From positions 1 to 64,000 of the forward strand of contig CAWCUT010000002.1 of the NCBI GenBank assembly GCA_963798875.1: a stretch of 64,000 nt of DNA, in the 5' to 3' direction. The notes under the pieces were generated by a model. It was not told the DNA's origin and made no database searches. It saw nothing but the letters and a program-made list of their open reading frames with translations. This document shows, piece after piece, positions 10,199 through 63,607 of the stretch; position 1 is the stretch's first letter; the number at the start of each line of letters is the position of its first letter. This stretch comes from an uncultured Solirubrobacterales bacterium. GTDB taxonomy: Bacteria; Actinomycetota; Thermoleophilia; Solirubrobacterales; 70-9. Position numbers and translations under genes: made by a program.

Positions 10199-11110
10199 AT
10201 GGTCTCCGAAGCCCTGAAGATCGCGGAGGAGGGTTCGCAGCTCGCCCGGGTCAACGGGATCGAGCTCTGCTACGACGAGTTCGGCGATCCGGAGGCGGAG
10301 ACGATCCTGCTGGTCATGGGGCTCGGCATGCAGATGCTCGCCTGGGACGCCGGAGTTCTGCGGGATGCTCGCCCAGCGAGGCTTCCACGTCGTCCGCTTC
10401 GACAACCGTGACGTCGGGCTCTCGACGAAGCTCGCCGGCCGCGTCAACATCCCGGCAGGGATGGTCGGGCTGACCGGTTCCGCCGTCTACACGCTCGACG
10501 ACATGGCCGCGGACACGCTCGGGCTGGTCGACCACCTCGAGCTCGATCGGGCCACCTGGTCGGCGTCTCGATGGGCGGCATGATCGGCCAGAAGGTCGCC
10601 GCGCACCTACCCCGACCGCGTCGCCAGCCTCTGCTCGATCATGTCGGGCACCGGGCGCCGGCGGATCTGGACGACGCCGCGGCTCGACGCCCTGCGGATG
10701 CTGATGCAGAAGCCGGCCCGCACGACCCGTGAGGCCTACATCGAGTCCGCGGCGACGATGTTCAGCGTCATCTCCTCGCCCGCCTATCCGCCCGAACCCG
10801 ACGCAGCTGCGCGAGCACGCCGGGCGCGCCTGGGACCGCTGCTTCTACCCGAGCGGCGTCGCCCGGCAGCTGATGGCCGTGCTGGCCTCGGGCGACCGCA
10901 CGCGCGAGCTGGCGAAGATCACCGCGCCGACGCTGGTGATCCACGGCCGCGAGGACCGGCTGATCCCGGTCCGCGCCGGGCGCAACACCGCCGCCGCGAT
11001 CCCGGCGCGCGAGCTCGAGCTGATCGACGGGATGGGCCACGACCTGCCGCCGGCCCTGTGGGAGCGGGTCGTCGAGCTGATCGTCCGCAACATCGGCCGG
11101 GCGCAGCCGG
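10199..11110 (+). pseudogene. Alpha/beta-hydrolase fold protein disrupted by at least 3 frameshifts.
   Basis: Pieces in three frames: GIELCYDEFGDPEAETILLVMGLG; HVVRFDNRDVGLS...[17 protein letters not shown]; [12 protein letters not shown]; TLVIHGREDRLIP...GMGHDLP. Together they make a complete alpha/beta hydrolase. Confidence 0.6.
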
Positions 11111-11143
11111 CGCCGAGCCGGCGCCGTCAGCGACTGACGGCGC

Positions 11144-13242
11144 TCAGCCGCCGGGCGCAGCCGCCTCGAAGGCGGCCGCGACGCCCTCGAGCAGGCGTCT
11201 CGGGCGTGAACGGCTTCTCGACGAAGCCCGCCTCGAGCTCACGGACGCCATCGCGCGAGATCGTGTCGCCCGTGTAGCCGGACATGAAGACGATGCCGAT
11301 CCCCGGATCGCAGCTCGCGCACGTCGGCGGGCGAGCTCGACTCCGGAGAGGCCCGGCATGACGATGTCGGTGAGCAGCACCGCGAAGCGCGATCTCCGCA
11401 GCGACGAGCAACTCGAGCGCCGCTCGGGCGCGGCCGCGACCTCGACGTCGTAGCCGCCCTCGACGAGCACCCGCTCGGTCAGCCGACGAACCATCGCGTC
11501 GTCCTCGACGAGCAGCACCCGGCGCGGCTGCTGCGTCGCCCTCGGCGGCGGGCGTCGCCGGCACCGCTGCATCGAGGCCGGCTGCAGCGACCTCGCTCGG
11601 CGACGGGCAGCAGGATGTCGACGTCCGTCCCGCCGCCCGGCTCGGAGGCGAGCTCGATCGAGCCGCCGAGGCCGGAGACGATCCCGTAGACGGTCGCCAG
11701 GCCGAGCCCGGAGCCCTCGCCGATCGGCTTCGTCGTGAAGAACGGCTCGAACGCCTTCTCCTGCACGGCTCGCGGCTCATGCCGACGCCGTCGTCGCTGA
11801 CCGTGAGCCGCACCCAGCGATAGCTCGGCGTCGCTGCGACCGGCGCGCTCGACGCTGATCCGGACCGTGCCGCCGTCCGGCATCGCGTCGCGGGCGTTGA
11901 CCGCGAGGTTGACGACGATCTGCTCGATCTGGCCGCGCGCCGGCCTCGATCGCGCGCAGGTCGCTCGCCAGTCGAGGTCTCGATCGAATAGCCCTCGCCG
12001 AGCGTGCGGCGCCAGCATGCGTTCGGCGCGCGGCGACCGCCTCGGCGACGTCGATCGGCTCGATCGCGACCACCTCCTGCCGCGAGAAGACGAGCAGCTG
12101 CCGGGTGAGCTCGGCGGCGCGGCGTCGCCGCCGCCTCGATCTCGTCGATCGACTCGCCTCGGACCGGCCCCGCCTGCGACGTGCTCGCGAGCGAAGGTCG
12201 CGTGGTTGAGGATGACGCCGAGCAGGTTGTTGAAGTCGTGGGCGATCCCACCGGTGAGCTGGCCCATCGCCTCGATCCGGCTGAGGCGCTGGAAGCGCGT
12301 CTCGAGGTCGCGCGCCCGCTCGCGCTCGTGCGCCGCCGCGAGCACGTGGCGAGGTCGCCTGCAGAAAGCCGACCTCGGCGACCGAGAAGTGCCGCTCGCC
12401 CCGGTGCGAAGGCGGCGAGCAGCGCCAGTCGGCCGGAAGGGGTCGCCGATCGCGACGCTGATCCCGTCCCGTGCGCCGCAGCGCGCGAAGAGCCCCTCGG
12501 GCGTCCAGCTCGGAGGGGTGTCCGTGATGACGACGCCGGTCCCGGTGCGCAGCAGCGCCGCTGCGTCGGTGCCCGCCAGCGGGATCCGCTCCGTCGGCCG
12601 CTCCTCCCCGCCCCAACCGCGACCGCCCTCGAAGCGCAGCACGCCGTTCTCGGCGTCGATGGCGAAGACGGCGACGAGCTCGATCGCCAACGATTCGGCG
12701 ACGATCTTCGCGGCCCGCGCGACGAGCTCGGTGCGCTCGATCCCGCCGATCGCCAGCGTGCCCAGCGCGGCCACGGGGCCGAGGCTGCTGGTCGCCGGCA
12801 GGTGCTCTCCGGGGGCACGGGCTGCCGAGGTGTCGAGGACGAGCGAACAGGTGCCCGCGATCGAGCCGTCGGGGCGGAAGTCGAGGCCCGAGCGAACCCG
12901 CGCCGGGAAGGTCGCGCCGTCCTTGCGCAGCAGCCGCAGGTCGTACTCGAGCGGCGTCTCGGGGATCCGCAACAGGGCCTCCCGGAGCCGTTGGGTGACG
13001 TCCGCCGTCGCGATCGGCAACTCCTCGGGCAGCCGCCCGATCGCCTGGGCCGCGGAGTAGCCAAACATCTCCTCAGCCGCCCCGCCCCATCCACTGATCA
13101 CCCGCGGCTCGCCGCTGAAGCGAATCAGCGCCACGCCAAGCGCCCGCAGCTGCGCCAGCACCACGGCCTCGCCCGCCGCGAAGGCAGCGTCGGGTCCCGC
13201 GCCAACCTGTCCCGACCCCCCGGGGTCCGCCCCATTGCTCAC
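11144..13242 (-). pseudogene. Hybrid sensor histidine kinase (PAS-HisKA-HATPase-REC) with multiple frameshifts.
   Basis: N-terminal PAS (LIRFSGEPRVISGWGGAAEEMFGYSAAQAIGRLPEEL). HisKA (GQLTGGIAHDFNNLL). HATPase (VNLAVNARDAMPDGGTVRI...GSGLGLATVYGIVSGLGGSIEL). C-terminal receiver (VLLVEDDAMVRRL...LLTDIVMPGLSG). Spread over at least 4 frames. Confidence 0.65.
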
Positions 13243-13454
13243 CTGTCGAGTCTCTACGACGTGTGCCCGCTGCGCAACCCCCCCGCTTAGGTGTACGGCG
13301 ATGGCCACCCGGACGCCATCGCCGCCATCGCCCGACCTGACGATGAGTCTTCCGGACTTCACCCCCTCCACGGTGGCAAAGCCCGGAGTGCTTCCGCCGG
13401 CCGTCGCCCGATTGGGCTGAAGTCGCGGGGATGACTCACTAGTAGCCTCGTCGC

Positions 13455-14294
13455 GTGCGGATCGGGATCGCAACCTGCGTGCACCCGCCGGCGCGGGACG
13501 AGGACATCGACTTCCTGCTGCCGGCGCTGCGCCGCCGGGGCGCCGAGGCCGAGGCGAAGCCCTGGAGCGATCCCGCGGTCGACTGGGCCGGCTACGACGT
13601 TGTCCTGATCAGCTCGACCTGGGACTACGACGAGCAGCTCGACGAGTTCCTCGCCTGGAGCAAGCGGGTCGGCGCGGCGACCGCGCTGCGCAACCCGGCC
13701 GCGACGGTCGCCTGGAACGTCGACAAGCGCTACCTGCGTGAGCTCGAGGCGGCCGGCGTCGCGACGATCCCGACGATCTGGACGGAGCCCGGTCAGGAGG
13801 AGGAGATCGAGCGCACCGTCGCCGAGCTTGGCTGGGGCGACGTGATCATCAAGCCCGTCGTCGACCTCGGCGCCCGGCGCCTGGCACGGGTCGAGACGCC
13901 GATGGTCGCCCGCATCCTCGAGGCGCTTGCGGCGCCGGGCATGGCGCAGCCCTTCCTGCGCCCCCTGCAGACCGAGGGTGAGCTCAGCCTCGTGTTCATC
14001 GGCGGCGAGCTGACCCACGCCGTCCGCAAGCGGCCCGCCCGCGGTGACTTCCGCGTCCAGCCGCAGTACGGGGGAACGGTCGAGCCGCTCGAGCCGCCGC
14101 CGGACGCGGTCGCGCTCGCCCGCGAGGCACTCGCCGCGGCACCGGGGGAGCCACTGTACGCACGCGCCGACTTGATCCGCGACGGCGACGGGAAGCTGCG
14201 CCTGATCGAGCTCGAGCTCATCGAGCCGGTCCTCTACTTGGGCTTCGCGCCGGCTGCCGCCGAGCGCCTCGCCCGGGCCCTGCTCGCAACCTGA
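13455..14294 (+). CDS. ATP-grasp domain protein (RimK/glutathione-synthetase-like). This is copy A of the duplicated unit.
   Basis: 279-aa intact ORF from a GTG start. ATP-grasp-like layout. Homologous to the truncated copy at 18590. Confidence 0.7.
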   Translation: MRIGIATCVHPPARDEDIDFLLPALRRRGAEAEAKPWSDPAVDWAGYDVVLISSTWDYDEQLDEFLAWSKRVGAATALRNPAATVAWNVDKRYLRELEAAGVATIPTIWTEPGQEEEIERTVAELGWGDVIIKPVVDLGARRLARVETPMVARILEALAAPGMAQPFLRPLQTEGELSLVFIGGELTHAVRKRPARGDFRVQPQYGGTVEPLEPPPDAVALAREALAAAPGEPLYARADLIRDGDGKLRLIELELIEPVLYLGFAPAAAERLARALLAT

Positions 14295-14773
14295 GCCCCA
14301 GGGCTCTCGTACAGATGTCGAGACGGCTTGCGGACGCTGATCGCGTGGCGCGGCGGCGCCGATGGTGAGGTCGCTGGGGGTCGTATCTGGGGACGCATCC
14401 CCGAGGAGACCTCATCAAGACGCATTCAGACATCGCAGGATCAGGGAGGGCGTGGATCGACGTCGCCGGCCGGTCTCGGGCGGGCAAACGCGCGGGCCTG
14501 GGCGGGCTGCCGGTCCGCGGACGTCCACTGCAGGGGAACGGGGCCGCCCGCCGCTGCGCACCGTTCCTCGCCGCGGCTGTCGCGGCGCTGGCGCTGACGG
14601 CAGCGAACGCCCCCGCCGACTCTGCCGACGAGCTCCTGGCCGCGACGATCGCCCTGCTCGGCGGCGCGCTGCTGGCCCGCTCACTGCCATGGCGGCGCCT
14701 GTCCGCGTCGGCGCAAGCGCTGCCGCCGCTCGCCTTCCTGGCAATCGTCGCGCTCGTCCGCGACGCGGAGGGA

Positions 14774-15511
14774 GTGGCCGTCGCAACGTTCACGCCGATG
14801 CTGGCGCTGCCCGTGATCTGGTTCGCCCTGTACGGCACGCGGACCGAGCTGGCCGTCTCGATCGGCCTCGCCGGCGCCGTCATCGCCGCGCCCGACCTGA
14901 TCGATCCGGACGGCGCGTCGCTGGAGCCGGCCGCCGCGGGCGTCTGGATCGTCGTCCTCGCGCTCGTCGGCTACGCGAGCTCGGCGATCGTCCGGGAGCG
15001 GGAACGCCTCCTCGACGAGGTCGGAAAGCTCGCCCGCACCGACCCGCTCACCGGGCTCGCCAACCGCCGCGGCTGGGGCGAGATGCTGCGCCGCGAGATC
15101 GCGCGCGCGGACCGCGACGAGGGACCGCTGTCGGTCGCGCTCGTCGACATCGACCGCTTCAAGGAGTTCAACGACCGCTACGGCCACGCCGCGGGCGACC
15201 GCCTGCTCAAGGAAGCCGCCTCGCGCTGGAGCTCGCAGATCCGCGAGATGGACCTGATCGCCAGGCACGGTGGAGAGGAGTTCGCGGTGCTGCTGCCGGG
15301 CGCCCGGGCAGCGGACGCGGCGTCCGTCGTCGAGCGCGTACGCAGCAGCGCTCCTGGAGGGATCACGATCTCGGGAGGCGTCGCGCAGCGTCAGCAGGGC
15401 GAAACCCCGGAGGCGCTCCTCGCCCGCGCCGACGCCGCCATGTACCAGGCCAAGCGCGAGGGCCGCGACGCGATCCGCGTCGCTCAGCGCTCGGCGACCA
15501 GCAACGTCTGA
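14774..15511 (+). CDS. GGDEF diguanylate cyclase with an N-terminal membrane domain (copy A). The membrane domain continues in-frame upstream to about 14400 with no canonical start.
   Basis: GGDEF core: RTDPLTGLANRRGWGE...VALVDIDRFKEFNDRYGHAAGDRLL...RHGGEEFAVLLPG. The upstream in-frame sequence encodes TM helices but lacks ATG, GTG or TTG back to a stop at 14366. The start is unresolved. Confidence 0.7.
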   Translation: MAVATFTPMLALPVIWFALYGTRTELAVSIGLAGAVIAAPDLIDPDGASLEPAAAGVWIVVLALVGYASSAIVRERERLLDEVGKLARTDPLTGLANRRGWGEMLRREIARADRDEGPLSVALVDIDRFKEFNDRYGHAAGDRLLKEAASRWSSQIREMDLIARHGGEEFAVLLPGARAADAASVVERVRSSAPGGITISGGVAQRQQGETPEALLARADAAMYQAKREGRDAIRVAQRSATSNV

Positions 15512-16316
15512 CAGGCGCGGCCGAGGGGGCCGCGCTCGTCGAGCAGCAGCGTGTCCGCCATGCCCTGCCCGTTCGGCTCGGGGATCGTGAGCGCGTCGAG
15601 GCAGACCCACTCCCCCGCCGGTAGCCGGTGCAGGTGGACGGTCAGGTCGACGTTGATGAACAGGTAGCGCTGAAAGTCGAGCGTCGAGCTGATTCCGTTG
15701 CCGGAGTCGGCGGCGACCATCACGCGCTGCAGCGACGTGGGCTCCTCCCCGGCGACGAGCGGGTGGCGCGAGCGCATCCAGCAGACGGCGGCGCCGGTCT
15801 CGAGGAAGCCGCCGCGCACGAACCGGTACTCCATCGCCGAGTGGTAGCCGACGGCCTCACCCGTCGGAAAGAAGACCTCGCTGGCCTCGAGCTCGCCGGG
15901 GGGCGGCGGCGGGCCCTGCTCGCCGCTCGGCCGCCCGGCGCGGGCGGGAGCCGAGCCCGGCCCACCGGCGCTCGCCAGCCCGTCGGGGTGCCGTCCTTGC
16001 GGACAAGGCGCACGTCGTGCTCGACCGGCGTCTCCGGCATCCGCAGCAGCGACTTCCGCACGCGCCGCGCCAGCAACGGGCTCGCGATCGGCAGCTCCTC
16101 CGGCCGGCAGCCGATCGCCTCCTCCGCGGTGAAGCCGAAGATCTCGGTCGCGGCCCCCTCCCAGGAGGTGATCCGGCGCTCGTCGCCGCTGAAGCGGATG
16201 AGGGCCGCGCCGAGCTGCAACAGGCGGGCGGTCACGGCGGCCTCTTCGGCCGCAGGCGCAGCCCCCGACTCCCCATCTGGCCTCCCCCAGCCAGCGGAAT
16301 CGCCGCCTGTGCTCAC
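15484..16316 (-). pseudogene. Chimeric remnant: a duplicated PAS-encoding 5' fragment of the sensor-kinase gene joined to the C-terminal half of a thioesterase-family gene (copy A).
   Basis: 15990-16316 encodes ALIRFSGDERRITSWEGAATEIFGFTAEEAIGCRPEELPIA..., about 75% nt identity to 12905-13242. 15484-15834 encodes MEYRFVRGGFLETGAAVCWMRSRHPLVAGEEP...HLHRLPAGEWVCLDA..., near-identical to 20037-20400. Confidence 0.5.
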
Positions 16317-16335
16317 AGGGAATTTGTACCGCTTC

Positions 16336-16770
16336 CTACGATTCCTGCCATGTGGCGCCGGCGCCTGATCGCGATTGCCGCCTGGGCGCCGGCGGTTGCG
16401 TGCCTCGGATTCGCCCTCCTGCGGGTGAGCGGAGCCGGGGGCGATCGCGGAGCTCGCGAGCTCCGACCCGGTCGCGTCGCGACGCCCGCGCTAACTCCGG
16501 CTCACCGGTTCTCGCGCCGCCAGAGAGGCGCAGGCCGGACCAGGTTACGTCGATCGCGCAGACCTTGTTGTCAACCAGGCCAAGTGGGAGCGCGAGCTCG
16601 CGGGGCACGTCCTCGGTGATGTCCGTGGCGACCCCGGAGGCCCGCTTCGGCCAGGCGACCCAGAGCCCGCCCGCGGGGTGGATCGCACCGCCGACCGGCT
16701 TGCGGCGGCGGCGTAGCTCGGCACGGCGCCGCCCGAACAGCGCGCCAACGTCCAGCGGGCCGCGTGCCAC
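16336..16770 (-). CDS. Hypothetical protein (possible gene remnant).
   Basis: GTG-initiated 144-aa ORF (WVARGPLDVGALFGRRRAEL...GGLWVAWPKRASGVATDITEDVP...). No confident family assignment. C-terminal third is low-complexity. Confidence 0.3.
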   Translation of the reverse strand: MARGPLDVGALFGRRRAELRRRRKPVGGAIHPAGGLWVAWPKRASGVATDITEDVPRELALPLGLVDNKVCAIDVTWSGLRLSGGARTGEPELARASRRDRVGARELRDRPRLRSPAGGRIRGTQPPAPRRQSRSGAGATWQES

Positions 16771-17049
16771 CCACTTCGTCGTGACGCCGTCGGGAAGCGG
16801 ACCGAGGCTCGCCGCGAAGCCGACCGGAGCGCCGGGCGTCGCCAGCGTCGAGCCGGACCAGATCCCGGCGTGCGGGGAGCGGAGTTAAGGGTGGCCGGCC
16901 GCGCCCACGTCGACGCGGTCGTCTCCATAAGAGTACGGCCGCCGCATGGCCTCACCAAGAAGAACGTATCGTGTTTCCCCATTGGCGAGATAACCAAATG
17001 AACTGCTATGTGACTTGACAAGCGGCCTCGGCTCGCCTACAAAACTCAT

Positions 17050-17580
17050 ATGGGCCCCGCTGGGAGAGGCCATGGTCGGAAGGGATACGCGGTCGTCGCG
17101 ACATCCTGGTTAGTTTGCGTGCTGCTGGTTGCTACCGATGCAGTGGGTCATACCCCCACTTCCCACGGCACAGCTTGGCAGGGGAAGGGAGGGTTCACAA
17201 CGTTGATTCCGCGATGCGTCAAGACTCTCTCCAGACTTGCTCATGGCACCCAGAATAAGGGCTTTGTTCGCACCACCACCGAGAGTTGGAAGAGCGCATT
17301 CAACGGCACTTGCAACTATACGAAGAACAAGGACAAGAACAAGATCGCTGCCAAATGGGATGTCTACCGGCGGTCAAAAGACGGCACATACAAGTACTGC
17401 GCGGGCTCCGCGTGGTATTACAATCCTAGTAGCACTTGGTCATATTCGGTGTACTACAACTTCCCAACCGTTCCGTGCAAGTGGGGTGCCTACCGGGCTA
17501 GGTCCTCCAGCTTCGTGAAACAGCACGGCAATTGGAAGGGTGGGTCGACGTGGTCCCCCCCACATTCATTCCCACCGTAG
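17050..17580 (+). CDS. Small secreted Cys/Trp/Tyr/Lys-rich protein encoded in a lower-GC island.
   Basis: N-terminal hydrophobic signal (AVVATSWLVCVLLVATDAVG). Mature region about 140 aa with 4 Cys, 7 Trp, many Tyr/Lys/Asn (…NGTCNYTKNKDKNK…YSVYYNFPTVPCKWGAY…). A/T-ending codons (aag, aac, tac) contrast sharply with the flanking genes. Confidence 0.55.
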   Translation: MGPAGRGHGRKGYAVVATSWLVCVLLVATDAVGHTPTSHGTAWQGKGGFTTLIPRCVKTLSRLAHGTQNKGFVRTTTESWKSAFNGTCNYTKNKDKNKIAAKWDVYRRSKDGTYKYCAGSAWYYNPSSTWSYSVYYNFPTVPCKWGAYRARSSSFVKQHGNWKGGSTWSPPHSFPP

Positions 17581-17586
17581 GCTGCG

Positions 17587-18018
17587 ATGATGCGTCTTCG
17601 ACCAATCCTCATTTCTATAGCGGCCATACTTCCGGTAGGGCTGGTAGTGCTGAGCGTAAGCCCGGCGTCCGACAGTCCGCGTGCCACGCATCCCGATACT
17701 GAGCTGACCGCAGCCTACGAGCCAGCGCTCCCGAAGGACGGCGACTTCGTACCAGTTGTGGGTCCGGACGGCAACGATGTTCGTTGTCCGAACGGCAAGC
17801 TCCTGAAGGTCGAGGTTGGGGGCCCGCCACCCGAAGTGTTCGTCGATCCCCCTCCCACCCAGCCAAGTGCTGCGCAACCGCCGGATGAGCCGCCTGCCGC
17901 TGGAGCCATCCTCGTACCAGCTGAACCGTTAGTTCCGATTTGCGGTGGGAAGGGAGGCACGGCGAACCCGCGATGGATTCCTCTCTCCCATCGTCACGCC
18001 GGAACGCAAGGTTCGTAG
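17587..18018 (+). CDS. Small secreted proline-rich protein (lower-GC island).
   Basis: Signal peptide MMRLRPILISIAAILPVGLVVLSVSPA. Pro-rich mature region (GGPPPEVFVDPPPTQPSAAQPPDEPPAAG) with 2 Cys. Confidence 0.45.
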   Translation: MMRLRPILISIAAILPVGLVVLSVSPASDSPRATHPDTELTAAYEPALPKDGDFVPVVGPDGNDVRCPNGKLLKVEVGGPPPEVFVDPPPTQPSAAQPPDEPPAAGAILVPAEPLVPICGGKGGTANPRWIPLSHRHAGTQGS

Positions 18019-18407
18019 CCGTCGCACTGGCTGCGGCCATGCTGGCAACTGGACTCAGTTCCCCGGGTTGTGGTGGCGGCACGGAACCAACAGCCGGCCC
18101 CGGCCCCGGCAGTGGCTCCCCCGTCAGTCTCGAGCGCGCAACGGAAATCGTCGAGAGGCGAGGCACCGAGATCCAGATGGCATATGACGGCGCCAGGACT
18201 GTGTCCCCGGCGCCTGCCAGCGGGGCGGGACCAAGAGATGCGGACGCGACTGAGGGGTTGTTCGTGATCAGGGTCTTGCTTGCGAGCGGCTCGAGGCAGC
18301 CGGCGAGGGAGCAGTCAGTCGACGGTGTGCCAATTGAGTTCCACGTACTTTCGCCGGGCGTGAGCGAATCGGCCCCTCCGCTGAATAGTGAGGGCGGTAA
18401 CCCGTAG
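17973..18407 (+). CDS. Small secreted protein or possible lipoprotein (lower-GC island).
   Basis: MDSSLPSSRRNARFVAVALAAAMLATGLSSPGCGG signal with a Cys shortly after the h-region. The ORF track start (17940) overlaps the preceding gene, so the internal ATG at 17973 is preferred. Confidence 0.4.
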   Translation: MDSSLPSSRRNARFVAVALAAAMLATGLSSPGCGGGTEPTAGPGPGSGSPVSLERATEIVERRGTEIQMAYDGARTVSPAPASGAGPRDADATEGLFVIRVLLASGSRQPAREQSVDGVPIEFHVLSPGVSESAPPLNSEGGNP

Positions 18408-18500
18408 CCATCAGGCGCCGAGTTGGCGCTGGCCGCCGAGTAGCTCGTTGACCCGGGTCAGGCCCGAGAGGCCCGGCGCTACGGCGCTGCCCGCGATAGC

Positions 18501-18526
18501 GTCCACGCCACACGTGTGGCGCGGAC
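18501..18526. repeat. 26-bp near-perfect palindrome carrying the recurring ACGTGTGGCGCG motif.
   Basis: gtccacgccacac|gtgtggcgcggac (one mismatch), immediately upstream of duplicated copy B. Confidence 0.5.
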
Positions 18527-18589
18527 GTGGCTTCAGATCTGACCGAGCCCACGGACGCGTCCACCCGTCGACCACTAGTCTCCCGCCGC

Positions 18590-19000
18590 GTGCGGATCGG
18601 GATCGCGACCTGCTCCCGCCCGCCGGCGCGGGACGAGGACATCGACTTCCTGCTGCCGGCGTTGCGGCGGCGGGGCGCCGAGGCCGAGGCCGCAGCCTGG
18701 ACCGACGCGAAGACCGATGGTCCGCCTTCGACACCGTCCTGATCAGCTCGACTTGGGACTACGACGAGCGCCTCGACGAGTTCCGTGCCTGGACCGACCG
18801 CACGGGCGGCGAAACGAAGCTGCTGAACCCTCCGGCGACCGTGGCCTGGAACCTCGACAAGCGCTACCTGCGCGAGCTCGAGGCAGCCGGCGTGGCGACG
18901 ATCCCTGCCGATGGTGCTCCGCTGGGGGTCGTATCCGGGGGATCGAACCCGGAGGGAGACCTCATCAACACCGACACAGACATGGCAAGCGCAGGGAGGC
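18590..19000 (+). pseudogene. Truncated, frameshifted ATP-grasp gene (copy B of the duplicated unit).
   Basis: Starts VRIGIATCSRPPARDEDIDFLLPALRRRGAEAEA... (about 85-90% nt identity to 13455 onward). Contains a frameshift. An internal deletion of about 0.5 kb removes the C-terminal half relative to copy A. Confidence 0.55.
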
Positions 19001-20030
19001 CGCCGATCGGCGGTCACGAGATCGACTACAGCCGCGGCAGGCGCGCTCCGGCCGCGATCCCAGAGCGAGGCCGGCCGCTCGAGGGGCGCGGCGCCTGGCG
19101 CCGCTGCGCGCCCTTCCTCGGGGCGCGGTGGCGGCGCTGTTGCTGAGCGCGTTCGTTGGGCCCGCGGCGCTGAGCGGCGCACAGCTCGTGCGGGCGCTGG
19201 CGGCGGTCGTCGGCGGCACCGTTGTCTCCCTGCTCGTCCCCTGGCAGCGACTGCCGGCGGCGGCGCAGGCGCTGCCGCCACTGCTCTTCCTCGTCTTCGT
19301 GGCGCTCGTCCGCAACGCGGAGGGAACCCCGGTGACGACGTTCACGCCGATGCTGGCGCTGCCGGTGATCTGGTTCGCCCTGTACGGGACCCAGCTCGAG
19401 CTCGGGGCCGGGATCGCCGCAGCGGGACTCGTGATCGCGCTGCCGCCGGTGCTGGATCCGGACGGCACGCTGAGCCGGGAGCTGCCCGCGGCCGGCATCT
19501 GGCTCGTCGTGCTGCTCCTCGCCGGCTACGCGACCTCGGCGCTCGTCCGCGAGCGCGAGCGGCTGCTGGGAGAGGTCGCGAAGCTGGCCCGCACCGACCC
19601 GCTCACGGGCCTCGCCAACCGCCGCGGCTGGGGCGAGCTGCTGCGGCGCGAGATCGCACGGGGCGAGCGCAGCGGCGCCCCGCTCTCGGTGGCGCTCGTC
19701 GACATCGACCGGTTCAAGGACTTCAACGACCGCTACAGGCACGGCGGGGGACCGGCTGCTGAAGGAGGCGGCCTCGCGCTGGAGCGCCCACGTCCGCGAC
19801 GATCGATGTGATCGCGCGGCACGGGGGTGAGGAGTTCGCGGTGCTGCTGCCAGGCGCGGGAGGCAGCGACGCGGTGGCCGTCGTCGAACGCATGCGGGCT
19901 GTCGCCCCCCGGGCATCACCTTCTCCGCCGGCATCGCAGAGTGGCGGCCGGGCGAGAGCCCTGACGCGCTGCTCGGGCGCGCGGACGCGGCCATGTATAG
20001 GGCCAAGCGCGAGGGCCGCGACGCTGTCCG
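18983..20030 (+). pseudogene. GGDEF diguanylate cyclase, copy B, with at least 3 frameshifts.
   Basis: ATG at 18983 (where copy A has ATC). TM region, then RTDPLTGLANRRGWGELLRRE...VALVDIDRFKDFNDRY, then a frameshift, then IARHGGEEFAVLLPG, then a frameshift, then GITFSAGIAEW...AMYRAKREGRD. About 70-85% aa identity to copy A. Confidence 0.6.
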
Positions 20031-20036
20031 GCTCGC

Positions 20037-20763
20037 TCAGCGCTCCGCGACGAGCAGCGTCTGACAGGCGCGGCCGAGCGGGCCGCGCTCGTCGAGCAGC
20101 AGCGTGTCCGCCATGCCCTGCCCGTTCGGCTCGGGGATCGTGAGCGCGTCGAGGCAGACCCACTCCCCCGCCGGCAGCCGGTGCAGGTGGACGGTCAGAT
20201 CGACGTTGATGAACAGGTAGCGCTGGAAGTCGAGCGTCGAGCTGATTCCGTTGCCGGAGTCGGCGGCGACCATCACGCGCTGCAGCGGCGTCGGGCTCCT
20301 CCCCGGCGACGAGCGGGTGGCGCATGCGCATCCAGCAGACGGCGGCGCCGGTCTCGAGGAAGCCGCCGCGCACGAACCGGTACTCCATCGCCGAGTGGTA
20401 GCCGACGTCCTCGCCGGTCGGAAAGAAGACCTCGCTGGCCTCGAGCTCGCCGGGGGCGGCGGCGGGCCCTGCTCGCCGCTCGGCCGCCCGGCGCGGGCGG
20501 GCGCCGAGCCCGGCCCATCGGCGCTCGCCAGCCCGTCGGGGATCGCCGGCGCCGATGCGGCCAGGCGCCAGGCCCGGGCCCGGATCAGCTCGCCGCCGCT
20601 CGCCGCTCGCCTCGCTCAGCGTCGCCTCGAGCAGCTCGACGCGGCGGCCGGCGCGAACCGTCGCCACGTCGACCCGCAGCTCGGCGATCGGCACCGGGCG
20701 CAGGATCTCGAACGTGATCCGGCCGACCGAGCGATCGCCGGGGCCGGCGCCGATCCCCGGCAT
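20037..20763 (-). pseudogene. Thioesterase-family (TesB/4HBT-like) protein, copy B. Full length but frameshifted.
   Basis: N-terminal GRITFEILRPVPIAELRVDVATVRAGRRVELLEA. C-terminal EYRFVRGGFLETGAAVCWMRMRHP...DFQRYLFINVDLTVHLHRLPAGEWVCLDA.... Pieces lie in at least 2 frames. Confidence 0.55.
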
Positions 20764-21099
20764 GCTGCTCGAGCGCGCGGGCGAGCAGGGCCGCGGGCGG
20801 GCCGGCGTGCTGGCTGGCGGCGTCCCAGGGGCCGCGGGTGAGCTCGGTCGAGCGAAAGGTCCGCCGCCCCCCGGCTCAGCGGCCGAGGGGCTCGAAGAAG
20901 CTCGAGGGCGAGCCGCTCAAGCGCGGGTCCGGGGATCGTGGACCATCCACGGGCGGCAGGCTACCCTCGGCACCCTGGCCGGGCTTGCAGCTCGCGAATC
21001 GCGTACCGTGCATGGGTCTCCTCAGGAGCGGCACGTTCAGGGGCCGGTAAGCGCCAGGACCTAGATTCCTGCTGAGATCCACGTCCCACAGGAGGAACC

Positions 21100-21518
21100 A
21101 TGGAAAAGGTTCAGAAGACGAGACCGCGAATGGCGCGAGCAGCTCTCCGATGAGGCAGTTCGAGGTGACCCGCAAGGCCGGGACCGAGCGCGCCTTCACC
21201 GGCCGCTACTGGGACGAGCAGGCCGACGGGACCTACCGTTGCGTGTGCTGCGGCCAGGAGCTGTTCGACTCCGAGACGAAGTTCGACTCCGGCACCGGCT
21301 GGCCGAGCTTCTACGAGCCGGCCGCCGACGCGCGGTCGAGACGAAGTCCGACAACAGCCTCTTCATGCGCCGCACCGAGGTGCTCTGCAGCCGCTGCGAC
21401 GCCCACCTCGGGCCACGTCTTCGAGGACGGCCCGGAGCCGACCGGGCAGCGCTTCTGCATCAACTCAGCCGCGCTCTCGCTGGATCAGCCGAGCGACGAG
21501 CCGGCACCAGACTCCTAA
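21100..21518 (+). CDS. msrB: Peptide-methionine (R)-S-oxide reductase MsrB, with about 4 apparent frameshifts.
   Basis: RBS AGGAGGA then ATG. Fragments [77 protein letters not shown] and [21 protein letters not shown] are distributed over three frames. Confidence 0.7.
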
Positions 21519-21721
21519 GACCAGGAGAGGGTTCGCAGCGACGGCGTGGGAACGGCACGCCGTCGCTCGGTCCTGCGCGGACGGCGGCGCGAGGGCCCGC
21601 TGCTCGGCGTCCTCGTCGGCTCACGTGCTGGCGCACGCTTCGCCTCCTGCGTCCTTGATCAGCGAGCCCTCGCACTCGCCGCCGGTATCCCTCTTTGGAT
21701 TTCTCCGGTTAGGCTCATCTC

Positions 21722-22214: not shown

Positions 22215-22219
22215 AACAG

Positions 22220-24600: not shown

Positions 24601-24605
24601 GCCGC

Positions 24606-25068: not shown

Positions 25069-25098
25069 GCGGGCGGCATCATACTTCGGACGCCCCCG

Positions 25099-26991: not shown

Positions 26992-27077
26992 AGCGGCACA
27001 AGCTGCGCGGCCTGCAGCCGCTCGACCAGCCCCGCAGCCCCGAGGAGCTGCGGATCCGGCAGCTCCGCGCGCGCGAC

Positions 27078-30503: not shown

Positions 30504-30518
30504 GGGCGGGGCGTCACG

Positions 30519-45768: not shown

Positions 45769-45800
45769 TCGGCGGCGGCGGGCCCGACGCGGCTTCGGGG

Positions 45801-54187: not shown

Positions 54188-56708
54188 TTGAGCAAGGCCG
54201 AGAAACCGCAGATCACGATCGTCGTCGACGGCGTCGAGATCGAGACCACGGAAGGCCGGATGCTGGTCGACGCCGCCAAGTCCGGCGACGTCGAGATCCC
54301 GGTCTTCTGTTACGAGCCGAAGCTCGGCGACCCGGTCGGCGCCTGCCGCATGTGCCTGGTCGAGATCGAGGGCATCCCAAAGCTGCAGACCGCCTGCTCG
54401 ACCCCGGTCCGGGACGGGATGGTCATCTACACGCAGACCGACCGGGTCAAGGAGGCGCAGAACGCGGTCGTCGAGTTCCTGCTCGTCAACCACCCACTCG
54501 ATTGCCCCGTCTGCGACAAGGGCGGCGAGTGCCCGCTGCAGGACATCTCGATGGGCTGGGGTCCCGGCCGCAGTCGCGTCACCGATCCGAAGCGCCACTT
54601 CCAAAAACCGATCCCGCTGAGCCCGCTGATCAAGATCGACCGCGAGCGCTGCATCCTCTGCTACCGCTGCGTGCGCTTCAGCCAGGAGGTCGCCGAGGAC
54701 GAGCACCTGCAGCTGCTCGAGCGCGGCCCGAAGACGTTCGTCGGGACCTTCAACGACCGGCCCTACTCCGCCCCCTTCCACGGCAACATCATCGAGCTCT
54801 GTCCCGTCGGCGCCCTGACCTCGCAGACGTACCGCTTCCGGGCGCGGCCGTGGGACATCGAGGACGCGGGTTCGGTCTGCACGCTCTGCCCGAGCCAGTG
54901 CAACGTCAAGTTCACCGTCCGCGACGAGCAGGTCGTCCGCGTCCTCGGCCGCGACAACCACGACGTCGACGACGGCTGGCTCTGCGACAAGGGCCGCTTC
55001 GGCTTCGAGATGTTTGCCTCCGACAATCGACCGCTGGGGCCGCAGGTGCGGACCGGCGGCGCGCTCGGTGAAGCGACCTGGGCCGAAGCACTGGAGCGAA
55101 CCGCACGCGGGCTGACCGAGGCGCACGGCAAGGTCGCCGCGATCGTCGGCGGCGGCGCCTCGAACGAGGAGGCCTACTTGATCCAGCGCATGGTTCGCGG
55201 CCCGCTCGCCTCCCACGACGTCGTCGGCGCCGAGCACGGCGCCGTCCCCGCCGCGTCGCGCGCGGCGCTCTCCGATCCGGACCTCGCCCTCTCGATGGGC
55301 GACATCGACGGCGCCGACGCGATCCTCGTGGTCGGCACGGACCCGATGCACGACATGCCGATCCTCGAGCTGCGGATCCGCAAGGCCGTGCGCCGCCACG
55401 GTTCCGACCTGCTCGTCGCGACCGAGCGCCCGACGGCGCTCGACGGTGGCGCGGCGGTGGGCTCCTCCGGATGCCTGGAGGCGGCGCGGTATGCACCCGG
55501 CGGCGCGGCGGCCTTCCTCGCCTCGCTGGCCGCCGAGCTGCAGGGCGAAGGCGATGGCGCCAACGGCTTCGCCGAGGCTCTGCGCGGAGCGGAGGACGTG
55601 GCGATCGTGTGGGGCGAGCGGATCTCGACCGGTCCCGGCGGCGAGAGCGCCGTCTCCTCGCTGCTCGAGATCGCCGACGCGCTCGGGCTCGCCGGGCAAG
55701 CCCGGCAGCGGCCTGCTCGAGGTTCCCGCTCGCCGCCAATGGCCGCGGCCTCCGCGAGGCGGGCGCCTACGAGAACGTCGGCCCGGGGCTGGTGCCGCTC
55801 GCCCGCAGCGGGCGCGACGCCGATGCGATCCGCGAGGCGCTCGAAGCCGGCGAGCTCGAGGCCCTGATCCTCTGGGATGTCGACCCGGTTCGCGACTTCG
55901 CCGACCCCGAGGGCTGGGCGCGGGCGATCGGCGCCGCCAACTTCACCCTGAGCGTCTCGATGTTCGACGGTGCCAGCGCCAAGGGCGCCGACGTGCACCT
56001 GCCGGCGGAGACACACGCCGAGAAGGAGGGCAGCGTCACCCACCCGGACGGGCGCCTGCAGCGGGTCCGGCCCTCGGTGCCGCATCCGGGGGCGGTGCGG
56101 CCCCTGTGGCAGGCGCTGACCGAGCTCAGCGCGCAACTCGGCGACGAGACCGGCGCCGGCACCGCCGGTGAGGTCTTCGAGCTGCTCGCCGCCGAAGCGC
56201 CGATCTACGCCGGGCTCACCTACGACCGGATCGGCGGCACCGGGATCCGCTGGCAGGAGGTCAACGCCGCGGCCGGCGCCCGAGCGGCTCGGCCGCCCCC
56301 GCCCCCGTGCCGCACGCCACCGAGCCGGCAGCCGGGATGCTGCGACTCGGCACCTACCACGACCTCTGGGCCGACTACGTCGCCGAGCGCAACCCGAGCC
56401 TCGAGTACCTCTCACCGCCGCAGACGCTCGAGCTCAGCGAAGGCGCCGCGCGCGGGCTCGGCGTCGGCAACGGAACCGAGGTGATCGTCACCGGCGAGAC
56501 CGGCGAGGAGCTGCGCGCCGTCGTCGCGATCCGGCCGCGGATGCCCGACGACGTCGGCTTCTTGATCGAGGGCACCGCCGAGGACGCCGCGAACCTGCTC
56601 GGCGAGGCGCGCGCGATCAGCGTCGCCGTCGCGCCTGCGGCGGAGGAGGACGAGGCACCGGCCCTCGGCGTCTCGGCCCGCGAGAAGGTCGCAGTGGTAG
56701 CCCGATGA
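54188..56708 (+). CDS. nuoG: NADH-quinone oxidoreductase subunit G with 2 apparent frameshifts.
   Basis: N-terminal 2Fe-2S/4Fe-4S Cys clusters (CYEPKLGDPVGACRMC…CPVCDKGGEC…CILCYRCVRF…CPVGAL…CTLCPSQC). Molybdopterin-like domain continues in a second frame (55471-) and a third (56307-56708). The stop overlaps the nuoH start (ATGA). Confidence 0.8.
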
Positions 56709-58037: not shown

Positions 58038-58550
58038 CATATGGACATCGGCAGCGCCCGCAGCACCCGTACGCCCGCACTCGCGATCGCCCTCGTGGCG
58101 AGCCTGCTCGCGATCCTGGTCGTTGCCGGCGGCGCCGCGGCACGCGGTGGCGGGATCGGCACCGGCGACGGTGGCGGTGGTGGTGGCAAGGGCTCGTGGA
58201 GCGGCAAGCTCAAGGGCGTCTCCCCCTCCTACGCGAAGTTCTCCGGCCTCGTCTCGAAGAAGACGCGGCTCTCGTTGCGCGTGATGGGAGCCTGGTCGCT
58301 CGCCGAGGGCGGGCCCAAGGACAATCCGCTCAACATCGGCCCCGGCAAGCGCTTCGGCACGGTCGGCAAGGGGGCAAGAGCGACCACCAACCTGCTCCAC
58401 GAAGACCGCTATCGCAGGATCCTCCGCAGCCGCAACCTCTCCGACGGCATGCAGATCAAGGCGATCGCCAACTCACCCTGGTGTCCGGGCTGCCACGGCT
58501 ACGGCAAGCTCCTGCACAGCGCCTACAAGCAGGTCAAGGTCAAGCACTGA
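58038..58550 (+). CDS. Hypothetical secreted Gly-rich protein.
   Basis: MDIGSARSTRTPALAIALVASLLAILVVAGGAAA signal. Gly run. C-terminal CPGCHGYGK. ATG at 58038 within track ORF 57987-58550. Confidence 0.4.
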   Translation, partial: HMDIGSARSTRTPALAIALVASLLAILVVAGGAAARGGGIGTGDGGGGGGKGSWSGKLKGVSPSYAKFSGLVSKKTRLSLRVMGAWSLAEGGPKDNPLNIGPGKRFGTVGKGARATTNLLHEDRYRRILRSRNLSDGMQIKAIANSPWCPGCHGYGKLLHSAYKQVKVKH

Positions 58551-59638
58551 GCGCTGGCGGGGTTCTGTCCCCCAGCGGGTGATGGCACGCGGCCCAGTGA
58601 CCCTCGCCGTAGTCGACGAACTCGGGCTCGATCTCCGAGCAGACGTCGGTCGCGTACGGGCAGCGGGTGTGGAAGCGGCAGGCTGAAGGGGGGTTCGCCG
58701 GGCTCGGCACGTCGCCCTCGAGGATCTGATGCGTGCGCTCGCGGTTTGCGCGCGGGTCGGGAATCGGAATCGCGTTGAGCAGCGACTGCGTGTAGGGGTG
58801 GATCGGGTTCGTGTAGACGGCCTCCGCCGGGCCGAGCTCGACGATCTTGCCCAGGTACATGACCGCGATCCGGTCGGCGACGTGGCGGACCACGCCGAGG
58901 TCGTGAGCGACGAAGACGTAGGCGAGGTCGAGATCGTCCTGCAGGTCCTCGAGCAGGTTGATGATCTGCGCCTGGATCGAGACATCGAGCGCCGAGACCG
59001 GCTCGTCGGCGACGATCAGCTTCGGCTTCAGCGCCAGCGCCCGGGCGATGCCGATCCGCTGCCGCTGGCCGCCTGAGAACTCGTGCGGGAAGCGGTTGTA
59101 GTGCTCGGGGCTGAGCCCGACGCGCTCGAGCAGCTCGCCGACCGCCTCCTTGACCCCGTCGTGCTCGACGATGCCGTGCAGGCGCATCGGGTCGCCGACG
59201 ATCTGGGCGACGCGCTTGCGCGGGTTCAGCGAGGCGTAGCGGGTCCTGGAAGATCATCTGCATTCGCGGGCGCAGCTTCCGCATCTCGCTGCCCGACAGT
59301 CCGGTGATCTCGCGGCCTTCGAAGCGGACCGAGCCCGAGGTCGGCTCGAGCAGCTGCAGCACGGTCCGGCTCAGCGTCGACTTGCCGCAGCCGGACTCAC
59401 CGACGAGGCCGAGCGTCTCGCCGGCATTGACCGTGAAGGAGACGTCGTCGACGGCCTGGACCGAGCCGATCTGCTTGTCGAAGATAATCCCGCGGGTGAT
59501 CGGGAAGTGCTTGACGAGGTGGTCGACCTGGAGGATCGGCGTCTCGTCAGCGTGCGGGTTGGCGGCCTTGATCTCGGCGACGTCGACCGAGGTGCCCTCG
59601 CCCTGCTTGATCGGCTCGCCGCCCTCCTGCTCGCTCAC
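58523..59638 (-). CDS. Oligopeptide/dipeptide ABC transporter ATP-binding protein (OppF/DppF-like) with 1 frameshift.
   Basis: Walker [16 protein letters not shown] then frameshift near 59230, then [15 protein letters not shown] (signature), Walker B LIVADEP. C-terminal Cys-rich OppF extension. Confidence 0.7.
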
Positions 59639-60714
59639 GATCCCTCCCCTCCGCTCGCGCTTGCCGTCTCGGCCGACTCAGGCGCCTCGGGCGACTCGAG
59701 CCCGAACTCGCCACCCTCAACCACCCGCAGCTCCTTCTTCTGCTCGGGGTCGAGCCAGCAGCGGTCGAGATGCTCCGGCGCACCGCCGCGGTGCTCGAGC
59801 TCGGGTAGCTGCCGGCACTTGTCGAAGGCGTGCGGGCAGCGGGGCTCGAAGGCGCAGCCGGTTGGCGGCGTGATCAGCGACGGCGGCTGCCCCGCGATCT
59901 GGGCGAGTCGCGCCGTCCGCGCCTGATCGATCCGGGTCAGCGAGCCGAGCAGGCCCCAGCTGTAGGGATGTTGGGGGTCGTAGAAGATGTCGTCGAGGGT
60001 GCCCGACTCGACCACGCGGCCTCCGTACATGACGAGCACGCGGTCGGCGACCTCGGCGATCACGCCGAGGTCGTGGGTGATCATGATCACGGCCATTCCG
60101 AAGCGCTTGCGCAGGCTCTCCAGCAGGCGCAGGATCTGCGCCTGTGTCGTGACATCGAGCGCCGTCGTCGGCTCGTCGGCGATCAGCACCTGGGGATCGT
60201 TGGTCAGCGCCATCGCGATCATCACGCGCTGCCGCATGCCACCGCTGAACTCGTGCGGGTACTCGCCCATGCGGCGCTCGGGGTCGGGGATCCCGACGAG
60301 CCCGAGTAGCTCGACCGCGCGTGCCTCCGCGTCGCCGTCGGAGAGGTTGCGGTGCACCTGGATCGCCTCGACGAGCTGCTTGCCGACCTTGAAGAACGGG
60401 TGCAGAGAGGAGAGCGGGTCCTGGAAGATCATCGAGATGCCGTTGCCGCGGATCGCGCGCAGGTCGTCGTCCTTCAGCGAGATCAGGTCGCGGCCCTCGA
60501 AGTGGGCGGTGCCGGTGATCGTCGTGTTGTCGGCCCGCGTCAGGCCCAGTAGCGAGAGGTTCGTGACGCTCTTGCCGGAGCCCGACTCGCCGACGATGCC
60601 GACGGTCTCCCCGGGCGCGATCTCGAAGCTGACGCCGTTGACCGCCTGCACGACACCGTCCTCGGTCGCGAAGCGGACCTCGAGGTCGGAGACTTTGAGG
60701 ATCGGCTCGCTCAC
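59635..60714 (-). CDS. Oligopeptide/dipeptide ABC transporter ATP-binding protein (OppD/DppD-like).
   Basis: [34 protein letters not shown]. 359 aa, intact. Start overlaps the upstream permease stop. Confidence 0.8.
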
Positions 60715-61706: not shown

Positions 61707-61800
61707 CTAGTGCGTCGGGGGGCGGAAGCGGTTTGCATGCCGGGGCCCCGGCCCCCTCGCCGCCGCGGCGGCGAGGGGGCTCGGGTGCCTCAGCGCCCGG

Positions 61801-63607
61801 TCAGGGCTTCAGCGACGTGAACGAGAGATCCCAGTTCGCGTTCGCCTTGTTGACCACGCCGGCGACGTCCGCCGACTGGATGTTGGCCTGGTCATCCCAG
61901 ATGTACGGGATGGCCGGAGCCTGTGCGCTGATCATGTCGTCGACCTGACCCCATGCAGCCGCGCGCTCCTGCGGGTCGGTGACCAACGAGGCCTTGTTGA
62001 TGGCCTTGTTGATCTCCGGCACGTTGAGCTGCGGCCAGTTGGAGTTGTTCTCCGGGACGATGTTCTCCCCGTTGAACGTCGGGTCGAGCATCGACTGGCC
62101 GTCGTTGAAGTCCTTCAGCCAGCCCACGTTCGGGCAGACCTGCGGAGCGTTCGAAGGAACGCTGCAGAACTTCGTGTACATGATGTCGTGCGTGACCTTC
62201 TGCAGGTTGACGTCGAAGCCGAGCTCCTCGAGCTGGCTCTTCGCAACCTCGGCCGTGTCGGACCCGGGTGGCGAGTCGTCGGCGACCATCGTGATCTTGC
62301 AGTCCGAGCCCTCGCACTTACCGCTCGAGAAGCCGGCCTTCTTCATGTAGGAGGCCGCCAGGCTCGGGTCGCCATCCGGATTCTTGGTGAAATCCAGATC
62401 GGGACCCGCGAGGCCACCCGCCTGCTCGAAGCCGGGGAAGTCCGGCGGCAGGTAGTGGGTGGCGACCGGACCGGTCAGCTCACCACCGCGCGTGTTGCGC
62501 AGATCGGTGCGGTTCGCGTTCGCGATCACGGCCTTGCGGACGTTGATGTCGTCGAACGGCGCCTTCTGCGTGTTCAGGGCGATGTAGCGGTTGCCACCGC
62601 TCGGGGTCAGCGTCAGCTGACCCTGCTCACCACTCTGAACCGCCTGCTTGATCGCCGACGGCGGCGTCGTGAAGTCGCCGTTGACGAGGTCGCTGCCGGT
62701 GAGGATCTTCTTCGACGCGGAGACCGTGTCGGCGAAGCCCTCCTGCACCTTGATCTCGTCCAGGTACGCCGGGCGGTAGTCGCCGTCCGGGTTCCAGTTC
62801 GGATTGCGAACCAGGTCGATCGTCTTGTTCGGCGTGTACTGCTTGATCATGTACGGGCCGGTCGCGACCTGGTTCTCACCGTAGGTCGAGGGGTTCTTGG
62901 CGTCGTACTTCTTCGCGTACTCCTCCGGGACCGGGGAGCTGACCGGCAGGGTCAGCGCGCCGATCACGCCCGCCGAGCTCGTCTTCGTGAGCTCGATCTG
63001 CAGCGTCGTGTCGTCCGGTGTAGTGATCCCCTTGATGTCGGGGGCGCCACCGGTCGGGTTGTCCTGAGCCTGCTTGACCGCGTCCTGGATGCCGACGACG
63101 TCCTTCAGGTACGTCTGCACGTAGCCGTTCGGGACACCGGGCAGCAAGCGAGCGCTCGATCGCGTACTTGACGTCGGCCGAGGTGACCGTCCGATTGACC
63201 GGCGGCGAGAACTTGACGTCAGGACGGATCTTGTAGGTGATCGTCTTGCCGTCGTCGCTGACGGTCGGCGCCTCCGCGGCGAGTGCCGGGGTCGGATCCT
63301 CGATGTCGGCGGGCGCGTAGGCCTCGAGCGGAGTCTGCGTCGCCCCATCGATCATGAACGACCACTGGTAATAGGCCGCGCCGGGATCGATGTAGTCGAC
63401 ATCGCTGGCCGCGATCACGGTCAGGGTGCCGCCCTTTTGCGCGTTGTCGGGCGGTGTCGTCGGCGCGGCGTACTTGGACTGTGCGTCCGAGACGCCGCTC
63501 TCGCTACTCGTGCTGCTGCTACTGCCGCTGCTGCCGCAGGCCGCGAGGACCAGCGCGGCGGTCAGCGCCATTCCGGGTATCAAGACCCGGAGCAAGCTTC
63601 GTCGCAT
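61801..63607 (-). CDS. ABC transporter substrate-binding lipoprotein (family 5, OppA/DppA-like) with 1 frameshift.
   Basis: RBS GAAAGGAAG plus ATG. Lipobox LVLAACGSS. SBP_bac_5-like body in two frames (frameshift near 63150). Confidence 0.7.

Follow-up and report, generated by a model that had tools for sequence, protein, structure and literature searches.

Decaying bacterial genomes, such as those of Mycobacterium leprae, Sodalis glossinidius and recent symbionts, are marked by nonsense mutations, relaxed ratios of non-synonymous to synonymous change (dN/dS), deletional bias, larger deletions and, often, expansion of insertion sequence (IS) elements; the indel spectrum of bacterial pseudogenes is deletion-biased. 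Programmed frameshift sites are conserved in orthologues and carry slippery or stimulatory signals. Nanopore consensus indels likewise lead to frameshifted gene calls, and bins with less than ∼40-fold coverage need short-read polishing (PMC9262707). The metagenome-assembled genomes (MAGs) of the Microflora Danica (MFD) catalogue were made from Nanopore reads only, using Flye --meta and one Medaka round without short-read polishing, and Nanopore-associated errors are described in the lower-coverage MAGs (PMC12313526). For the MFD samples, shallow Illumina data are also available (PMC12313526). Here we analyse the first 64,000 nt of contig CAWCUT010000002.1 (G+C ∼70%), from an uncultured Solirubrobacterales bacterium and hereafter called the window, in which 17 genes, including serS and several complex I genes, are interrupted by frame changes. 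We are highly confident that these are consensus errors of the assembly rather than mutations in the organism; the interrupted frames are not a biological feature. The indels exist and are specific to the window, and the genes in which they lie have otherwise undamaged coding information. A similarly patchy, one-directional pattern occurs at other loci of related Nanopore-only MAGs and hardly at all in other assemblies.

The window is like the pseudogene-rich genomes in that many genes, housekeeping genes included, are frameshifted, but none of their marks of decay is seen in it. As with programmed +1 or −1 frameshifting (prfB, dnaX, IS3 transposases), one protein is spread over two frames; here, however, the orthologues stay in one frame and the sites have no sequence context in common. 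With the Nanopore-only MFD catalogue the window has in common single-base indels in otherwise intact genes, at a density which varies among MAGs and along contigs; its nearest relatives belong to that catalogue, and several have the same defect. It differs from the Nanopore literature, in which homopolymer deletions predominate, because most of its indels are insertions and show no link to homopolymers, Nanopore being the presumed technology of the window.

Relatives were found with a NuoD protein query (first taken for NuoF), taking one genome per species. The resulting 80 loci are nearly all from Solirubrobacterales or Conexibacter-type MAGs, and just over half have 'MFD' isolate names. Nearest to the window, at 90–97% nucleotide identity limited to 25.5–41 kb, are L001 (CAWKLZ010000014.1; 94–97% over 25.5–31.4 kb) and L010 (CAWKLZ010000005.1; 94–96% over 32.7–41 kb), two contigs of a single MAG, MFD05442.bin.2.280. 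The next nearest, at 82–91%, are L002 (CAVXRV010000009.1; from 19.3 kb) and L003 (from 21.1 kb), both extending to 39 kb. Since spurious long open reading frames (ORFs) are abundant at high G+C, the true coding frames were located by three methods: third-position G+C with a codon log-odds segment score, trained on clean long ORFs, and a six-frame Viterbi path; tblastn with 1130 ORFs of the 80 related loci; and a purpose-written frameshift-aware protein-to-DNA aligner, run on 564 reference/window pairs, whose events were kept only if the majority of the references spanning the site concurred. For the kinase, oppF and oppA, which have no orthologues in the loci, the check was whether Pfam profile coordinates were continuous over the junctions; oppF was also aligned to its paralogue OppD. 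A simple GC frame-plot for strand calling proved too noisy and was dropped.

Codon scoring gave long single-frame genes in 1–10.2, 13.4–15.5, 25.6–29.7 and 34.2–55.7 kb and, outside those stretches, short abutting segments on the same strand in differing frames, in agreement with the Viterbi path. The tblastn matches were colinear in differing frames, with some junctions backed by 20–49 references. Taken together, the three methods yield ∼62 frame changes, spread over 17 genes from 10.3 to 63.2 kb, with insertions outnumbering deletions by about 3:1 (∼46:16, p = 2e-4). All but five of the 62 fall in 10.2–33.3 kb (57/62 in 36% of the window, binomial p = 4e-20), local density peaking at ∼5 per kb in 18.6–24.7 kb and 10.2–13.2 kb, and none falls in 1–10.2 kb or 33.3–55.7 kb. 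The interrupted genes, and the clean stretch which served as an internal control, are as follows.

10193–11095 (+): alpha/beta hydrolase, four frame changes by Viterbi at approximately 10351 (insertion), 10544 (deletion), 10604 (insertion) and 10785 (insertion); alignment to L009 gives the identical four events.
11162–13183 (−): PAS/HATPase_c/receiver hybrid histidine kinase, ∼13 changes by Viterbi at 11194–12428 (∼9 insertions, 4 deletions), the positions being approximate as there is no orthologue reference.
18578–20020 (+): ATP-grasp-like remnant and GGDEF (syntenic copy 2), five changes by Viterbi and alignment, at ∼18717 (deletion), 19121 (deletion), 19737 (insertion), 19798 (insertion) and 19899 (deletion).
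20043–20890 (−): acyl-CoA thioesterase (copy 2), at least four changes with 10–11 of 11 references concurring (20295 insertion, ∼20440 deletion, ∼20595 insertion, ∼20764 insertion), and probably one more indel pair near 20876.
21082–21515 (+): msrB, four changes with 11/11 references (insertions 21121, 21155 and 21410; deletion 21331).
21719–22212 (+): NfeD-like membrane protein, two insertions by alignment (21947, 22086).
22222–23196 (+): SPFH/Band 7 protein, five to six changes with 5/5 references (insertions 22264, 22304, 22677 and 23076; deletion 22832; possible further event at 22221), each private to the window in the DNA alignment.
23316–24603 (−): serS, eight insertion events with 54–57 references concurring (23358, 23844 (2 nt), 23980, 24018, 24034, 24088, 24269, 24468); seven are private to the window in a nine-sequence DNA alignment, and 23358 comes from the protein-guided alignment only.
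24612–25086 (−): small CxxCH (cytochrome-c-like) protein, one insertion at ∼24702 in the C-terminal tail with 7/9 references.
26982–27864 (+): nuoB with a C-terminal extension, one insertion (T) at 27637, private to the window in the DNA alignment with L001, L010, L002 and L003.
29788–30500 (+): nuoE, a firm +1 insertion at 30145 and a probable second shift at ∼29787–29915, in the variable N-terminus.
30907–31440 (−): rhodanese-like protein, changes at 31097 (insertion of A), 31324 (deletion of C) and 31411 (deletion of G), private in the DNA alignment.
31459–32762 (−): SQR-like FAD/pyridine-nucleotide disulfide oxidoreductase, insertions at 31657, 32255 and 32298 and a deletion at 32371.
32841–33703 (−): DsbA-like thioredoxin-fold protein, one deletion at ∼33240 with 5/5 references and the DNA alignment.
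54194–56690 (+): nuoG, three changes with 34/34 and 16/17 references (insertions ∼55703 and ∼55725; deletion ∼56279), spanning 580 nt, with the rest of the gene clean.
58543–59641 (−): oppF-type ABC ATPase, one insertion at ∼59236–59243 by Viterbi and OppD paralogue alignment.
61804–63571 (−): oppA-type solute-binding protein, one insertion at ∼63150 by Viterbi and junction sequence.
33643–55690 (no strand): internal control of 22 kb and ∼20 genes, no frame changes by Viterbi, alignment and Pfam (VKOR, ArsR, MMPL, MBL-rhodanese, TauE, nuoF, channels, decarboxylase, DUF2252, LAL, bestrophin and the first 1.5 kb of nuoG).

A first-pass annotation of the window had reported at least 15 genes with one to four frame changes each. 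The frame changes are real, but their number was understated, single genes having up to ∼13. Its minimum of four for both serS and the SPFH protein rises to eight and five to six, respectively, its figure of about four for msrB stands, and the interruptions it saw in SQR (4), the hybrid kinase (∼13), the hydrolase (4), oppF (1) and oppA (1) are confirmed. Two changes had been given for nuoE, of which one is firm and the other probable, and two for nuoG, where there are three. The long neighbours which it took to be intact, MMPL (711 aa), LAL (783 aa), nuoF and TopIB (6096–7508), are indeed so by Viterbi and Pfam, and the first three also by reference alignment. The labels of the complex I genes are corrected to nuoC (27908–28420), nuoD (28478–29746), nuoE (29788–30500) and nuoF (40681–41976).

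The procedures used on the broken genes gave no consensus events in 33.3–55.7 kb. Candidate events at 40.4–40.5 kb lie upstream of the nuoF start, inside stop-to-stop extensions of the reference ORFs, and were discarded. Within 1–10.2 kb, which lies outside the coverage of the related loci, all ORFs have full Pfam domains and the Viterbi path contains no real frameshift, the two flagged positions (1431 and 7677) being judged spurious. The clean stretches combined amount to ∼32 kb and 28 genes.

Adding or removing single bases at the junctions restores full-length conserved products. Re-joined SerS has no stops, is 89% identical to the L002 orthologue over 418 aa, contains full Seryl_tRNA_N and tRNA-synt_2b (class II core) domains, and aligns with seryl-tRNA synthetases in the database along its entire length (100%, E = 1e-236). 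End-to-end Pfam coverage is regained on re-joining in the hydrolase (Abhydrolase_1 3–239/245, with the GxSxG elbow), the kinase (HATPase_c 5–110/111 over three junctions, with the H, N, G1, F and G2 boxes), SQR (Pyr_redox_2 2–277/291), NuoG (every domain continuous), OppF (ABC_tran 2–136/137, continuous over a junction that falls within the conserved MIFQDP..SLNP motif) and OppA (SBP_bac_5 2–365/368, continuous over the junction).

Nor do the corrected genes show any relaxation of selection. Their dN/dS values (Nei–Gojobori) against L002, L003 or L004 are 0.12–0.42, on a par with the 0.17–0.32 of intact orthologues among themselves. The GGDEF part, at 95% identity to L002, gives 0.12, msrB, with its SelR domain, 0.20, and the SQR-like gene 0.22, all three without stops. 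In three-way dN branch lengths the window is never longer (serS 0.027 for the window and 0.038 for L002), and the pattern is alike for SPFH, NfeD, SQR and msrB. Thus, neither the raised dN/dS nor the longer branch expected of relaxed selection is found in the interrupted genes. In-frame stops are absent from 14 of the 16 corrected gene alignments, that of SPFH included. In the remaining two, thioesterase copy 2 has a single TAG at 20876–20878 in its poorly conserved N-terminus, which is probably the sign of another indel pair; in the g32.8 alignment, the stop is located upstream of the start codon. The pseudogene combination of nonsense codons and larger deletions is therefore not seen, there being no confirmed internal stop in the 16 alignments.

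Private events were counted in multiple DNA alignments with up to eight relatives. Over 21.1–24.6 kb the window has 17 private frame-breaking indels and only 12 private substitutions (1672 columns invariant in the relatives), and at the conserved sites of serS there are seven private indels against two private substitutions. In the same blocks private indels are absent from L003 and L005, each of which has 62 private substitutions. The surplus of indels is thus not accompanied by one of substitutions; a natural process that broke a gene eight times would leave substitutions far outnumbering indels. With ∼46 insertions to 16 deletions, the spectrum is also not the deletion-biased one of pseudogenes.

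Counting the indels in homopolymer runs, a check put forward in the first-pass annotation, gave no enrichment of the kind expected for classical artefacts. Run lengths at the 23 precisely placed events equal the background (Mann–Whitney p = 0.52), and none of the 23 is in a run of ≥4, though the window holds 92 runs of ≥5. No 4-mer enrichment at the sites survives correction for 256 tests (the best was CGAT, uncorrected p = 0.005). By eye GATC had seemed frequent near insertions, which suggested a methylation motif; its frequency proved to be that of the background (p = 0.32–0.56), and the idea was set aside. Without homopolymer or motif enrichment, the indels are unlike slippage mutations. 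We also considered that insertions arise at single-nucleotide polymorphisms between co-assembled strains, both alleles being kept in tandem. Among 14 cases, the inserted base equals a neighbouring alternative allele in six, where 26% would be expected (p = 0.14).

The relatives have the same defect at places of their own. L002 has 30 private insertions and one deletion in 34.2–39 kb, with 19 of the insertions in MMPL, a gene free of breaks in the window, and few or no private non-triplet indels in most other blocks. In the genes of the same 34.2–39 kb, L001 has one insertion and 18 deletions, with 10 deletions in MMPL. L010 has six indels in nuoC/D (the equivalent of 27.9–29.7 kb) and none in 34–39 kb; L017 has six frameshifts in nuoF and L046 three in serS. 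In L003, L004, L005, L008 and L009, private non-triplet indels are at ∼0.1–0.3 per kb, mainly at variable gene ends. Dense patches are almost lacking in non-MFD MAGs and public metagenome contigs. Copies of nuoD, nuoF or serS with at least one frameshift number 22/121 in MFD MAGs versus 3/183 in other assemblies (Fisher p = 3e-7), and all three copies with at least two frameshifts belong to MFD MAGs. The defect is therefore tied to long-read-only data sets. The comparison with close relatives also showed that the orthologues are single-frame and that the indels are private to each assembly, with the exception of 30145, which the window has in common with L010. Kilobase-scale patches, with a direction of bias and a place particular to each assembly, are characteristic of a consensus problem and not of inheritance. 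Clustering, which the first-pass annotation thought might reflect genuine decay, is not such a sign even at p = 4e-20, because the relatives are equally patchy in genes that are intact here.

The insertion at 30145 in nuoE deserves separate treatment. The window and the independent contig L010 have exactly the same +1 insertion, at the same alignment column and in a conserved part of the gene, and L001, which is nearer to the window around nuoE, lacks it. Downstream, nuoE is strongly conserved in the original frame (VLVCTNISCWMRG) in the window and L010 alike. The site reads GGCCAGCCAC, which is the outcome of retaining both C/G alleles side by side (GGCCA[C/G]CAC to GGCCAGCCAC); the alleles at this site are GGCCACCAC in L001 and CAG-type in L008. 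This detail hints at strain mixing. L001 and L002, both error-rich, also have one indel in common, so that such coincidences do occur between poor stretches and are not peculiar to the window.

The contig belongs to a soil Solirubrobacterales genome and most likely stems from an assembly of long metagenomic reads, probably Nanopore ones, that received no short-read polishing. Along parts of it the consensus would have been drawn from too few reads of the right strain, or from related co-occurring strains piled together, and there the polisher may have left near read-level noise (∼2–6 one-base indels per kb, or 0.2–0.6%); well-covered neighbouring stretches would have come out clean. Both the sequencing technology of the window itself and the origin of the patches in low depth or strain mixing are inferences. 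The preference for uncorrected indel errors over biology, already expressed in the first-pass annotation, is borne out by the re-joined genes, the signs of selection, the indel/substitution ratio, the insertion bias and the relatives. Several points nevertheless weigh against attributing everything to consensus error. Nanopore reads at low depth would apply to the window by extension from its relatives. The collections searched contained no second assembly of the same species for the densest stretch, and the best matches to corrected SerS (80% in a metagenome scan, 89% in a protein database) are too distant for a base-by-base check. The bias is towards insertions, and Nanopore consensus is usually described with homopolymer deletions. 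Finally, we estimate that a shared insertion such as that at 30145 would be expected ∼1% of the time under purely random error; it calls for a context-dependent error, a strain-mixture consensus or a real shared allele.

Genuine and very recent decay, in which a core segment of ∼25 kb, with serS and complex I genes in it, is undergoing inactivation, would account for numerous frameshifts concentrated in particular genes and for the insertion common to the window and L010, and there are seemingly real remnants in the window: a thioesterase without its N-terminal domain, a 587-bp ATP-grasp deletion and an AI-2E transporter fragment. We give this very little credence, for serS has eight frameshifts against two private conserved-site substitutions, no stops and an unchanged dN/dS and branch; the 3:1 insertion bias runs opposite to the deletional bias generally known for bacterial pseudogenes; the indels lie away from homopolymers; Pfam scans of the window found no transposase or IS element; and the relatives have equivalent patches in other genes, each one-sided in direction. 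The remnants look ordinary and real rather than erroneous; they are not frameshifts, and they leave the verdict unchanged. If the indels themselves were real, a free-living soil Solirubrobacterales population would have to carry a core segment of ∼25 kb (serS, msrB, SPFH, complex I genes and the sulfide-oxidation cluster) with a very recent burst of insertion-biased, homopolymer-independent frameshifts that left substitutions untouched. This would imply an indel-specific mutational process not known so far or a non-viable lineage, and we regard it as extremely improbable. An intermediate situation, mostly errors with a few real interruptions, such as nuoE at 30145 or decayed duplicates in 13–21 kb, is unlikely. 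The identical insertion in L010 speaks for it, as does the divergent duplication, with thioesterase copy 1 truncated and ATP-grasp copy 2 deleted. However, nuoE beyond 30145 is conserved in its original frame and L001 is without the insertion, a similar indel coincidence links L001 and L002, and the truncations are ordinary ones rather than frameshifts.

A few events do lengthen short G/C runs from two to three bases (21410, 24088, 24269), as would classical homopolymer-length errors (454, Ion Torrent or older Nanopore chemistry), but the background-like run lengths at the 23 placed events, with none in runs of ≥4, make these very improbable as the general explanation. Programmed ribosomal frameshifting or other recoding has nothing in its favour beyond the frame changes themselves. 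The orthologues, in up to 57 relatives, are single-frame at these positions and the sites are not conserved; there are several events per gene, in both directions, with no common or slippery context. The comparison with orthologues refutes recoding, whose chances are practically nil.

With consensus error as the explanation, the importance is practical only and concerns annotation. Gene calls, pseudogene counts, completeness and metabolic inference are unreliable at ∼10–33, 55.7–56.3, 59.2 and 63.15 kb, and it would be a mistake to conclude from this contig that there is 'no serS' or a 'broken complex I'. Other findings in the window which rely on exact reading frames inherit the problem. Similarly, using L001, L002, L010 or L017 as references would bring in fragmented MMPL, MBL-rhodanese, TauE, nuoC/D or nuoF genes.

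The window contains an internal divergent duplication, in which 13437–15988 corresponds to 18573–20541 and 12916–13179 to 15990–16253 (82% and 70% nucleotide identity). The duplicated units are an ATP-grasp/GGDEF/thioesterase block and a PAS segment of the kinase. Copy 2, the syntenic orthologue (95% aa identity to L002), contains numerous indels; copy 1 has diverged further (74%) and is clean. The copy 1 thioesterase consists of the C-terminal domain only, and in copy 2 587 bp of the ATP-grasp gene are missing. Either a genuine segmental duplication or the chimeric joining of two related genomes could explain this arrangement. Between the duplicate blocks, 16200–18600 has a lower G+C (65.7%) and a weak coding signal, with three small ORFs (17050–17580, 17587–18018 and 17940–18407) whose N-termini resemble signal peptides or lipoproteins; two coding segments there (16525–16884 and 17245–17538) had no Pfam match.

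The complex I operon is split over 26632–57712, with nuoABCDE at 26.6–30.5 kb, nuoF at 40.7–42.0 kb and nuoG and nuoH at 54.2–57.7 kb. The ∼10 kb between nuoE and nuoF hold a sulfur-related cluster, mostly kept in relatives (rhodanese, SQR-like, DsbA, VKOR, ArsR, MMPL, MBL-rhodanese and TauE). Between nuoF and nuoG lies a ∼12 kb insert (ion channel, CLC, PLP decarboxylase, DUF2252, LAL regulator and bestrophin-like) that is missing from L004, L005, L008 and L009. It includes an 83-aa ORF at 45768–46016 (+) whose match to the AI-2E transporter profile is confined to the final 60 positions and which is likely to be a genuine gene remnant within this window-specific insert.

MAG MFD05442.bin.2.280 has two versions of the nuoA–E and sulfur-cluster region (L001 and L010); since these are only ∼90% identical, two related genomes are probably mixed in the bin. 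Up to 31.4 kb the window most resembles L001, and from 32.7 kb onwards L010; the segment in between, 31452–32712 with the SQR-like gene, is absent in both and present in L002 and L003. In the conserved 400-nt spacer that follows nuoE, a Rfam scan found no meaningful match. A 303-bp unit 3′ of nuoE, noncoding by codon score and without a Rfam match, is single in the window (30513–30817; 76–79% identity) and present as 2.9 tandem copies in L002 (12399–13279; 99% matches). Elsewhere in the window, a cyclic di-AMP riboswitch (Rfam RF00379, 69.7 bits, full model) at 5265–5410 (+) stands directly 5′ of an ORF without a Pfam match (5412–5969).

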